This document shows, one piece after another, positions 1 through 5,638 of a stretch of DNA of 6,776 nucleotides. The position numbers and the translations under genes are program-made. The notes beneath the pieces are model-generated. The model had not been told where the DNA came from and did not search any database. It was given only the letters and a program-made list of their open reading frames with translations. Position 1 is the stretch's first letter. Each line of letters starts with the position of its first letter. The stretch comes from a virus (lineage: Duplodnaviria > Heunggongvirae > Uroviricota > Caudoviricetes): IMG/VR virus record IMGVR_UViG_2602041568_000010; one strand, 5' to 3'.

Positions 1-2611
<2,611 letters not shown>

Positions 2612-2637
<26 letters not shown>

Positions 2638-3157
2638 TCAGCAACCCCGGTATCAGTTCATCCAGCGCGGCTGCTTTGTTCATGGCTTTGATGATATCCC
2701 GTTTCAGGAAATCAACATGTCGGTTTTCCAGTTCCGGAAAACGCCGCTGCACCGACAGGGGGATCCCGTCGAGAATACTGGCAATTTCACCTGCGATCCG
2801 CGACAGCACGAAAGTACAGAATGCGGTTTCCACCACTTCAGCGGAGTCTCTGGCATTTTTCAGCTCCTGTGCGTCGGCCTGCGCACGCGTAAGTCGATGG
2901 CGTTCGTACTCAATAGTCCCTGGCTGGAGATCTGTCTCGCTGGCCTGCCGCAGTTCTTCAACTTCCCGGCGCAGCTTTTCGTTCTCAATTTCAGCATCCC
3001 TTTCGGCATACCATCTTATAACGGCGGCAGAGTCATAAAGCACCTCATTACCCTTGCCACCGCCTCGCAGAACGGGCATTCCCTGTTCCTGCCAGTTCTG
3101 AATGGTACGGATACTCGCACCGAAAATGTCAGCCAGCTGCTTTTTGTTGACTTCCAT
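2612..3157 (-). CDS. nu1: Terminase small subunit Nu1 (181 aa)
   Basis: ORF-track protein MEVNKKQLADIFGASIRTIQNWQEQGMPVLRGGGKGNEVLYDSAAVIRWYAERDAEIENEKLRREVEELRQ... is recognisable as lambda Nu1 with a few substitutions. Start context GTGGAATGAACA-ATG matches lambda. Sits immediately beside cosB. Confidence 0.95.
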
Positions 3158-3334: not shown

Positions 3335-3346
3335 AGGTCGCCGCCC
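3335..3346. other. cosN cohesive-end sequence (12 nt, reverse complement of lambda GGGCGGCGACCT)
   Basis: Plus strand reads aggtcgccgccc at 3335-3346, flanked by cgcgaggtcgccgccccgtaacctgtcgg, which is the reverse complement of the lambda cos junction ...CCGACAGGTTACG|GGGCGGCGACCTCGCG.... Confidence 0.88.
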
Positions 3347-3354
3347 CGTAACCT

Positions 3355-3376
3355 GTCGGATCGCCGGAAAGGACCC
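3355..3376. other. cosQ (packaging termination element), approximate
   Basis: Position (about 10-30 bp on the right-end side of cosN) and sequence tcggatcgccggaaaggaccc correspond to the lambda right-end segment GGGTCCTTTCCGGTGATCCGA where cosQ maps, as I recall. Exact boundaries uncertain. Confidence 0.45.
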
Positions 3377-3382
3377 GCAAAA

Positions 3383-3397
3383 TGATAATAATTATCA
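3383..3397. promoter_or_regulatory. Perfect 7-1-7 inverted repeat TGATAAT-a-ATTATCA (Fur-box-like operator candidate)
   Basis: Read directly: tgataataattatca is a perfect palindrome and matches the 7-1-7 Fur-box core TGATAATnATTATCA at 14/14 positions. It lies between cosQ and the plus-strand 77-aa gene. Function not established. Confidence 0.35.
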
Positions 3398-3545
3398 TCT
3401 ATATGTCACAACGTGCATCTACGCCATCAAACCACGTCAAATAATCAATTATGACGCAGGTATCGTATTAATTGATCTGCATCAACTTAACGTAAAAACA
3501 ACTTCAGACAATACAAATCAGCGACACTGAATACGGGGCAACCTC

Positions 3546-3779
3546 ATGTCAACGAAGAACAAAACCCGCAGAACAACAACCCGCAACATCCGCTTTCCTA
3601 ACCAAATGATTGAACAAATTAACATCGCTCTTGAGCAAAAAGGGTCCGGGAATTTCTCAGCCTGGGTCATTGAAGCCTGCCGCCGGAGACTGTGCTCAGA
3701 AAAAAGAGTTTCTTCTGAAGCAAACAAAGAAAAGAGTGACATTACTGAATTGCTCAGAAAACAGGTCAGACCAGATTGA
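3546..3779 (+). CDS. Small basic protein, 77 aa, putative ribbon-helix-helix-like DNA binder; YnfO/YlcI-like conserved lambdoid right-end ORF
   Basis: ORF-track protein MSTKNKTRRTTTRNIRFPNQMIEQINIALEQKGSGNFSAWVIEACRRRL.... Basic N-terminus, then strand-helix-loop-helix pattern (RNIRFPNQ / MIEQINIALEQ / KGSGN / FSAWVIEACRRRL) typical of RHH folds. Position and length match my memory of Qin ynfO and the lambda right-end ORF. Transcribed antisense to the late operon. Confidence 0.7.
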   Translation: MSTKNKTRRTTTRNIRFPNQMIEQINIALEQKGSGNFSAWVIEACRRRLCSEKRVSSEANKEKSDITELLRKQVRPD

Positions 3780-3836
3780 AGCAATTTAGATAATCGTGCA
3801 GACTACGCCCCCTCATATCACATGGAAGGTTTATCT

Positions 3837-4247
3837 ATGGATCAGGTAGTCATTTTTAAACAAATATTTGATAAAGTTCGAAACGATTTAAACTATCAAT
3901 GGTTTTATTCTGAGCTAAAACGTCACAATGTCTCACATTACATTTACTATTTAGCCACAGAGAATGTTCATATTGTATTAAAAAATGATAATACAGTGTT
4001 ATTAAAGGGCCTAAAAAACATTGTGTCTGTCAAATTTTCAAAGGATAGGCATCTTATAGAAACGACCTCTAATAAGCTGAAATCCAGAGAGATCACATTT
4101 CAGGAATACAGAAGAAACCTTGCTAAAGCAGGAGTTTTTCGGTGGGTTACAAATATCCACGAACAAAAAAGATATTACTATACCTTTGATAATTCATTAC
4201 TATTTACTGAAAGCATCCAGAAAACTACACAGATCTTACCACGCTAA
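3837..4247 (+). CDS. Hypothetical protein, 136 aa, YdfO-like (DUF1398-like) conserved lambdoid right-end ORF
   Basis: Part of ORF 3822..4247. I place the start at ATG 3837 ([18 protein letters not shown]...) because GGAAGG sits 7 nt upstream. Synteny (immediately after the 77-aa gene, near cos) and size match the Qin ydfO / lambda putative envelope protein position. Family assignment is from memory and not verified. Confidence 0.65.
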
Positions 4248-5157: not shown

Positions 5158-5245
5158 GTCAGAAACATCAAAAGATGATGTTCTATACTGGGAACCATGA
5201 CAACACGGGCATCTAAAGTGAATATGGTTTGTAATATTGTCTACC

Positions 5246-5458
5246 TCAAAGCGCCACTACATGAACAGCGGCAGGACCTTTAGGTCCGTTCTCAATACCA
5301 AATTCAACTTCCTGATTCTCAGTTAATGTTTTGAAATCGTTGCTCTGAATTGCTGAGAAATGGACAAACACATCTTTGCTGCCATCTTTCGGCGTGATGA
5401 AACCAAAACCTTTTTCAGGGTTAAACCATTTCACTAAACCAGTCATTTTGTTAGACAT
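5246..5458 (-). CDS. cspI: Cold-shock protein, CspA family (CspI-like), 70 aa
   Basis: ORF-track protein [70 protein letters not shown] carries the RNP1 (KGFGFI) and RNP2 (VFVHF) motifs of cold-shock domains. SD context AAGGTAATAATT-ATG closely resembles cspA. Confidence 0.93.
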
Positions 5459-5638
5459 AATTATTACCTTTTGAAGAAATTAGCCCTTGGGCAGAATGGT
5501 CCGAAAAAAAATATCAGAGAGAAAAACCAACAAGGAAATCTCAAGAGGTACAAATAATAAAATTATAACAATGACTGCTTCAGATAAATTTGTAACAAAC
5601 CAGAACACCATTAACGCATGATTAACCACCCATAGCAA
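5459..5638 (-). promoter_or_regulatory. cspI promoter candidate and long cspA-like 5' UTR
   Basis: Minus strand: -35 TTGCTA (5633-5638), 17-nt spacer, -10 GTTAAT (5610-5615), resembling the cspA promoter (TTGCAT / CTTAAT as I recall). Predicted leader about 145 nt, beginning GGUGUUCUGGUUUGUUACA... (cold-box-like). Confidence 0.4.

Follow-up and report, generated by a model that had tools for sequence, protein, structure and literature searches.

A Fur-box palindrome abutting cosQ in lambda-type cos sites, a candidate host Fur operator of the cos module

Lambda cos is among the best-studied DNA sites in biology, and a host DNA-binding protein already has a conserved place within it, IHF site I1 in cosB, where the DNA is bent for the binding of TerS at packaging initiation, a role that has been demonstrated. 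On the termination side lies cosQ (GGGTCCT), which the packaging motor meets just before cosN and whose 7-bp definition, reportedly that of Wieczorek and Feiss 2001, fits the depositors' annotation of phage 434. The operators of the metal-sensing repressor Fur form a second group of well-described sites, the classical E. coli Fur boxes such as those of gpmA, cirA and fepA-fes, which are written either as the 19-bp GATAATGATAATCATTATC or as overlapping 7-1-7 units. A phage-borne Fur operator is found at the stx1 promoter of Stx1 phages such as prophage Sp15 in strain Sakai, where the box overlaps a defined toxin promoter and has a known phenotype. Literature searches turned up no account of the near-ideal Fur box that abuts cosQ in lambda (48452–48466). 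In the main text of one source of Fur binding data (Gao et al. 2023, PMC10164565) there is no word of phages or prophages, and peaks at cos therefore stand unremarked in supplementary tables, under nohA, nohB or unnamed terminase genes.

The DNA analysed here (the window) is a stretch of 6,776 nucleotides from a virus of the Caudoviricetes (IMG/VR record IMGVR_UViG_2602041568_000010). It is a segment of a lambda-type prophage or phage, reversed relative to the lambda map orientation, with PhiR42_1 (ECOR13) as its top phage match at 99.2% identity, and among 5426 complete E. coli genomes 4608 have the same cos-to-ylcI region, K-12 with its DLP12 and Qin prophages being one of them. The features of the window are collected in Table 1. 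Between Nu1 and cosQ lie cosB and then cosN, the 12-base sequence of which is identical to the lambda left end, and the start of Nu1 is about 225 bp beyond the palindrome (the dyad) that is the subject of this work, on the other side of cos. Past the DUF1398 gene come gnsB, ynfN, a csp gene, Rz and R. The large terminase subunit gpA reads as two ORFs because runs of N interrupt the sequence; these runs, at 420–448 and 2456–2483, are masked sequence or assembly gaps where longer stretches are present in PhiR42_1, and a gpA frameshift was rejected as an artefact of them. When the window was scanned against Rfam together with two related loci, the cspA thermoregulator was the only hit, far from the dyad; this full-length match of 112.8 bits at 5219–5604 on the minus strand covers the DNA upstream of and across the prophage cold-shock gene (5246–5458).

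Table 1. Coordinates of features around cos in the window
Feature	Position	Strand	Basis or remark
gpA large terminase subunit, two ORFs	764–2437 and 2407–2637	-	split by run of N
Nu1 small terminase subunit	2612–3157	-	Phage_Nu1, E=2.4e-101
cosN 12-base cohesive-end sequence, GGGCGGCGACCT on minus strand	3335–3346	-	sequence match
cosQ packaging-termination subsite, GGGTCCT on minus (AGGACCC on plus)	3370–3376	-	agrees with 434 annotation
perfect 7-1-7 dyad TGATAATaATTATCA, Fur operator core	3383–3397	.	pattern match
extended Fur box (upstream A-run conserved)	3378–3399	+	consensus matches
sigma-70-like promoter match GTGACA-16-TATCAT, candidate	3382–3409	-	10/12 match
77-aa DUF3950 (YlcI/YnfO family) gene, reading away from cos	3546–3779	+	Pfam DUF3950, E=2.5e-21
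DUF1398 (YbcV/YdfO family) gene	3822–4247	+	same orientation as DUF3950 gene

An earlier note on this DNA had described a perfect 15-bp palindrome of the 7-1-7 Fur type beside cosQ, and that description stands. The sequence TGATAATaATTATCA is found exactly at 3383–3397, with A3390 as its centre and aggacccgcaaaaTGATAATaATTATCAtctatatg as its surroundings, and it agrees with the 7-1-7 Fur core at 14 of 14 positions. The pattern TGATAATNATTATCA, allowing up to two mismatches, occurs once in the window compared with 0.03 occurrences expected from 200 dinucleotide shuffles. The longer consensus sequences are also matched, since 3378–3396 (CAAAATGATAATAATTATC) agrees at 16 of 19 positions with the E. 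coli Fur box, and 3381–3399 agrees at 18 of 19 with the symmetric (Vibrio) Fur consensus AATGATAATAATTATCATT, a 19-mer that is strongly bound in EMSA by AsFur, the Fur protein of Aliivibrio salmonicida (PMC7536154), and from which the extended site differs by one terminal base. In a 71-kb background of E. coli and prophage loci, scores of at least 16/19 belong only to the known gpmA Fur box and to other cos dyads. If a Fur box is recognised by its match to the 19-bp consensus, by an inverted repeat of the 7-1-7 type or by three or more NATWAT hexamers, the dyad is a Fur box by sequence, and it behaves as one in vivo at those homologous copies for which Fur peaks are listed (see below).

The spacing given in the earlier note also proved accurate. 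The dyad starts 7 bases past the last base of cosQ, leaving a gap of 6 bp, and 148 bp separate its far end from the start codon of the 77-aa ORF, for which about 150 bp had been given. The placement relative to cosQ is supported by the deposited annotation of phage 434 (cosQ 24–30, dyad 37–51, 6 bp further on) and by lambda (NC_001416; dyad 48452–48466, GGGTCCT 48473–48479). The palindrome is outside the 7-bp cosQ; a position inside cosQ would, by the terms of the earlier note, have refuted its proposal. An IHF site at the dyad was considered and rejected, as no match to WATCAANNNNTTR with up to one mismatch overlaps 3383–3397.

Close relatives are 96% identical over the whole intergenic region and by themselves therefore carry little information, and so lambda-type cos sites were sampled from IMG/VR using a cosN-side 17-mer that excludes both cosQ and the dyad. 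This yielded 142 occurrences and 67 distinct 90-mers, which were grouped by the sequence beyond the dyad zone into 20 contexts, a dyad being called at 11 or more of the 14 positions of the 7-1-7 core. A Fur-type dyad is present 3–8 bp after cosQ (the commonest gap being 6 bp) in 13 of these 20 unrelated downstream contexts, compared with a mean of 0.23 contexts for 2000 composition-matched permuted palindromes. By this conservation check, of the kind that the earlier note had proposed for lambdoid cos regions, the palindrome is no chance match of AT-rich sequence. The distribution of 7-1-7 scores over the 20 contexts is bimodal, with values of at least 11 or at most 7. In a non-redundant set of sequences anchored on the dyad, the arms carry 1.5–2.0 bits per position versus 0.1–0.6 bits in the cosN–cosQ spacer and the downstream DNA, although this set was chosen on the motif and the context count is therefore the cleaner statistic. 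The Fur-specific positions are kept (G2, A3, A5, T11, T13 and A15, together with C14 in 22 of 23 sequences) while the adjoining cosN–cosQ spacer diverges freely. In a scan of GTDB, cosQ with an adjoining dyad turned up in Escherichia, Shigella, E. albertii, Kosakonia, Serratia and Buttiauxella, with two perfect boxes 26 bp apart in a Buttiauxella prophage and three Fur-box-like sites within 140 bp of cosQ in a Serratia prophage. At the level of sequence, these comparisons demonstrate selection on the dyad at 3–8 bp from cosQ, with the conserved positions being those of a Fur box. The dyad is missing in seven of the 20 contexts, as in the cos of strain 48, and hence it is dispensable. Five of the seven have the canonical AGGACCC cosQ, and in one such context a terminator-like hairpin occupies the dyad position.

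Three further observations can be added. The 150 bp between the dyad and the start of the DUF3950 gene (3398–3545) are almost invariant among the window, 434, DLP12, Qin and PhiR42_1, and are largely kept in a phage 21-type prophage (89% identical overall). Such conservation is unusual in non-coding DNA, and the stretch may serve as a long leader or as a promoter, or may encode a small RNA. The IMG/VR contigs L013, L021, L023, L037, L047, L049 and L076 contain two inverted, back-to-back lambda-type cos sites 530–870 bp apart (for example, L021 4186–4733), in which the cosB sides face each other across an AT-rich spacer with no convincing ORFs. Neither cos of these pairs has a Fur dyad, and one has a terminator-like hairpin directly after cosQ; such pairs may be satellite or PICI junctions. 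Sequence of the lambda right end was also present in assemblies assigned to Colwellia, Streptomyces, relatives of Bacillus, Flavobacterium, Nanosynbacter MAGs and others (L138–L176), in many cases on contigs of 3.5 kb or at the ends of contigs of 48.5 kb, and this looks like contamination by lambda control DNA.

Which of its neighbors the dyad belongs to can be read from the mosaic joints. Homology of the window to Stx1a phages and to the prophages of LF82 and CFT073 stops precisely at 3397, where the dyad ends, and homology to another prophage, which has no dyad, ends right after cosQ. The gene after the dyad differs by context. The lambda and phage 21 types have DUF3950 there, the CFT073/LF82 context has the gene of a small secreted protein with a TonB_C lipoprotein nearby, and one IMG/VR context (L017) has a cytochrome b561 gene directly after the dyad; in the Sp15 context Rz/Rz1 read toward cos, as do unrelated ORFs in several others. 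At least eight contexts have the dyad beside cosQ and no DUF3950 gene at all, and the dyad occurs with differing small terminases that share cosQ, namely Nu1 and the 158-aa Sp15 type. Since it persists with cos where DUF3950 is absent or replaced, the dyad travels with cos and not with the 77-aa gene. In all of the contexts that have it, the dyad abuts cosQ, on the side where late transcription and the packaging motor arrive, and lies upstream of the small terminase gene. On this comparative evidence the dyad, optional yet conserved, belongs on the cosQ side of lambda-type cos and can be assigned to the cos/terminase module.

Several properties of the neighboring DNA can be recorded here. In the LF82 and CFT073 loci (L006 1625–2640 and L009 455–1170), genes for a small Cys-rich secreted protein and a TonB_C-domain lipoprotein adjoin a strongly Fur-bound dyad, and the cargo genes beside the Fur-type dyad in these contexts and in L017 are iron- or heme-related. 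Some 200 nt of conserved non-coding sequence (ccaccatcgcaccgga...cggtaaaccccggtgtgtatcgtttttgattatccccgcacact...), with no Rfam match, follow Rz/Rz1 in several prophages and sometimes directly adjoin the dyad (L005 1700–1900, L132 1690–1880, L020, L008 and L007). The DUF3950 (YlcI/YnfO) ORF is unannotated in the lambda RefSeq entry NC_001416 (about 48110–48304, complement), where lambdap79, on the other strand, is the sole gene listed at 47600–48502.

Binding by Fur could be assessed in published ChIP data. The dyad of one CFT073 prophage, TGATAATTATTCTCG at 1424694–1424708, is 8 bp from its GGGTCCT and is overlapped by Fur ChIP-exo peak P53 (1424699–1424711), which is seen under iron-replete conditions only and has the terminase operon on one side and a small divergent transcription unit on the other (Gao et al. 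2023, PMC10164565, Dataset 2). An independent ChIP-seq study of Fur in CFT073 reports a summit at 1424721 with a height of 283, the values for acnA and adk being 315 and 143, and a weaker summit at 3046729 with a height of 20.55 (Banerjee et al. 2020, PMC7157518, Table S5A). The weaker one falls inside the dyad (3046725–3046739) of a second CFT073 prophage, where ggacccgaaaaaTGATAATAATTATCAtctacat is followed by a ylcI-family gene and where both the 15-mer and the type of context are those of the window. In Sakai, the iron-replete peak P90 (2918933–45) is assigned to the Sp15 terminase operon (PMC10164565), and after a shift of +124 bp it falls on TGATAATGGTTATCA, 6 bp past the AGGACCC of the Sp15 cos. 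This shift is deduced from the dataset being in older coordinates, and the same shift puts the stx1 and cirA peaks on their Fur boxes. The other Fur peaks in Sakai prophages, P34, P50 and P86, were considered as cos dyads and rejected because they are not in cos regions. By these peak lists, Fur occupies homologous dyads in both CFT073 and Sakai in vivo, in an iron-dependent manner.

The situation differs in K-12, whose regions nohD-ylcI (DLP12) and nohA-ynfO (Qin) are nearly identical to that of the window. The ChIP-exo lists of MG1655 and W3110, searched by coordinates and locus tags, contain no Fur peak at the perfect dyads of DLP12 (NC_000913.3 580594–580608, the same 15-mer as in the window) and Qin (1636593–1636607), and the BL21(DE3) list contains none at the cos of lambda-DE3, although these lists are curated and a peak missing from them counts only weakly as evidence. 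The copies in DLP12 and Qin can be told apart at about 10 of 60 bp, so that 31-nt reads should map uniquely. The imperfect gpmA box (13/14) is bound in MG1655, W3110, Sakai and CFT073 whereas the perfect K-12 cos dyads have no listed peak, and occupancy must therefore depend on context. We infer that it is strong in the potB-type prophage of CFT073 and in Sakai Sp15, and weak or undetectable in the lambda/DLP12-type context, which is that of the window.

Among the published expression data for delta-fur, derepression is recorded in CFT073 for genes to either side of the dyad (log2 1.3–2.9), with values of 2.95 for C_RS26755, 2.33 for C_RS07340, 2.13 for C_RS07370 and 1.34 for the large terminase subunit, and in Sakai the Sp15 terminase-operon genes ECs2961–2963, including that of the large subunit, are derepressed with log2 values of 1.0–1.6 (PMC10164565, Dataset 4). 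These values have the same sign as those of fepE, fecI and tonB and so represent derepression in delta-fur, which fits repression or a roadblock at cos. The effect on terminase genes could also be indirect, through more spontaneous prophage induction, and that in Sp15 could arise by read-through from the Fur-regulated stx1 promoter. In MG1655 delta-fur the genes listed from beside the dyads (ybcV, ybcW and nohD; nohQ and ydfO) show no response, and in W3110 delta-fur ynfO, ydfO, ybcV, ybcW and nohD are significantly down, with a non-significant drop in ylcI. The W3110 values are sharp (ynfO −5.1, ybcW −5.3, ybcV −3.7, ydfO −2.0 and appY −4.1, with the his operon also down; PMC10164565, Dataset 3), and such drops in DLP12 and Qin, unseen in MG1655, may be a strain or mutant artefact. 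The genes nohA and nohB appear only as ChIP peaks and not among the regulated genes in the other study (Banerjee et al., PMC7157518). The suggestion in the earlier note that the site could put the cos-proximal moron genes under iron control is consequently unsupported for the 77-aa gene in this context, as the dyad persists where DUF3950 is lacking, the DLP12 and Qin copies have no listed peak, and flanking genes are not derepressed in K-12. For the opposite direction there is a candidate promoter, GTGACA-16-TATCAT, which points toward cosQ, cosN and Nu1 and whose −10 hexamer and spacer are covered by the dyad. In lambda this match has decayed, and the CFT073 and Sp15 contexts do not have it; it is not conserved, and so it remains only a candidate and promoter occlusion cannot be the general mechanism.

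The explanation we favor, which taken jointly in all of its parts has in our estimation an even chance of being right, is that the palindrome is a genuine host Fur operator of the cos module that limits transcription across cos. In an iron-sufficient lysogen, dimers of Fur-Fe2+ would bind the dyad, and the bound Fur would block RNA polymerase either by occluding a promoter or as a roadblock, such that transcription starting at or crossing the cos boundary would be damped. Transcription of the terminase and head operon would be affected, as would that of an outward-facing cargo gene (moron) where one abuts the box. The main alternative, which we regard as unlikely, is that the dyad is an accessory site for packaging, at which Fur or another protein, standing in the way of the translocating terminase 6 bp before cosQ, slows or positions it and thereby aids the cosQ-dependent nicking of cosN, or protects or organises the right DNA end; the first of these roles would have its parallel in IHF at I1 in cosB. 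Such a role is in keeping with a dyad that always abuts cosQ (gap 3–8 bp) no matter which gene comes next or how that gene is oriented, that remains with cos across mosaic joints, that is found with both small terminases sharing cosQ (Nu1 and the 158-aa Sp15 type), and that in Sp15, Buttiauxella and Serratia has a neighbor reading toward cos, which leaves no outward gene to regulate. Moreover, cosQ mutations are reportedly suppressed by slow-packaging portal and terminase mutants, as Wieczorek, Didion and Feiss are said to have found in 2002, and a roadblock could therefore help termination. The cos fragments used in the Feiss laboratory (lambda 48442/48446 to 182) include the dyad, so that the contributions of dyad and cosQ are unseparated there. 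However, seven of the 20 contexts do without a dyad, five of them with a canonical cosQ, the variable gap contradicts a fixed geometry with cosQ, and in cosQ mutagenesis only 7 bp are said to be critical.

It is also doubtful that the dyad has no selected Fur function, that is, that an AT-rich dyad is kept by its linkage to cosQ or by a constraint on DNA structure and that Fur binding is incidental to the resemblance. The weak or absent occupancy in K-12, in BL21(DE3) and at the lambda-type copy in CFT073, the inconsistent effect on expression, and the many ChIP peaks in the same datasets that have no linked regulation would all be expected if this were so, but the Fur-specific positions are kept where the cosN–cosQ spacer diverges freely, the box is duplicated in Buttiauxella and triplicated in Serratia, and the contexts have either a good box or none. 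The dyad might instead be the operator of a phage protein, such as DUF3950 itself, a suspected ribbon-helix-helix autorepressor, given that a dyad-symmetric site stands 148 bp upstream of that gene and that the intervening 150 bp are almost invariant among lambda, 434, DLP12 and Qin. This would be highly improbable for a dyad that has the sequence of the Fur consensus, on which Fur ChIP peaks are centered, and that is beside cosQ in at least eight contexts lacking a DUF3950 gene, and the DUF3950-protein operator was rejected because the dyad persists in phages without the gene. Least probable of all, to the point of being scarcely credible, is that the palindrome is part of cosQ itself. The two are within 6 bp of one another and are conserved together, yet cosQ is annotated and defined as a separate 7-bp element, the length of the gap varies between 3 and 8 bp, and cos regions with an intact cosQ and no dyad contradict it.

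The wider proposal that Fur is an unrecognised host factor of lambda-type cos, acting either on the packaging motor or DNA end as a speed bump that aids termination at cosQ, or by gating transcription of the terminase operon, is put forward tentatively and with more doubt than belief. If it is true, virion production or the leakage of prophage late genes would be coupled to iron status in lambdoid phages of the Enterobacteriaceae. With a transcriptional role, iron sensing would take part in controlling the terminase and head genes of prophages, as well as cargo genes close to cos such as the cytochrome b561 gene and that of the small secreted protein next to the TonB-like lipoprotein. With a role in packaging, the dyad would be the second site for a host factor in cos and would open a new route to understanding how cosQ stops the motor. 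That imperfect copies are bound and perfect copies are not also makes the cos dyads instructive on how Fur occupancy depends on context.

Compared with the systems that are already described, the cos dyad resembles the classical E. coli Fur boxes in its sequence (14/14 and 16/19) and in the iron-replete-specific binding at homologous dyads, where the strength of the CFT073 peak is comparable to those of acnA and adk. It differs from them in that it lies over no recognisable conserved promoter, being situated instead at a packaging site and traveling with cosQ, and in that perfect copies in K-12 have no listed occupancy whereas gpmA is bound at 13/14. The Fur operator of the stx1 promoter is also phage-borne and bound under iron-replete conditions, and in Sakai it is in the very same prophage (stx1 P91, cos dyad P90), but the cos dyad, unlike the stx1 box, has no assigned promoter or phenotype. 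With IHF site I1 the dyad shares the property of being a site for a host DNA-binding protein that is conserved inside cos, but I1 functions at initiation, whereas the dyad is on the termination side and is the site of a metal-sensing repressor. Finally, cosQ is the immediate neighbor of the dyad, is conserved together with it and is met by the same motor, and differs from it as a separate element that is present in nearly every cos sampled, while the dyad is optional (13 of 20 contexts). For a Fur box, the location at cos is both unexpected and conserved.
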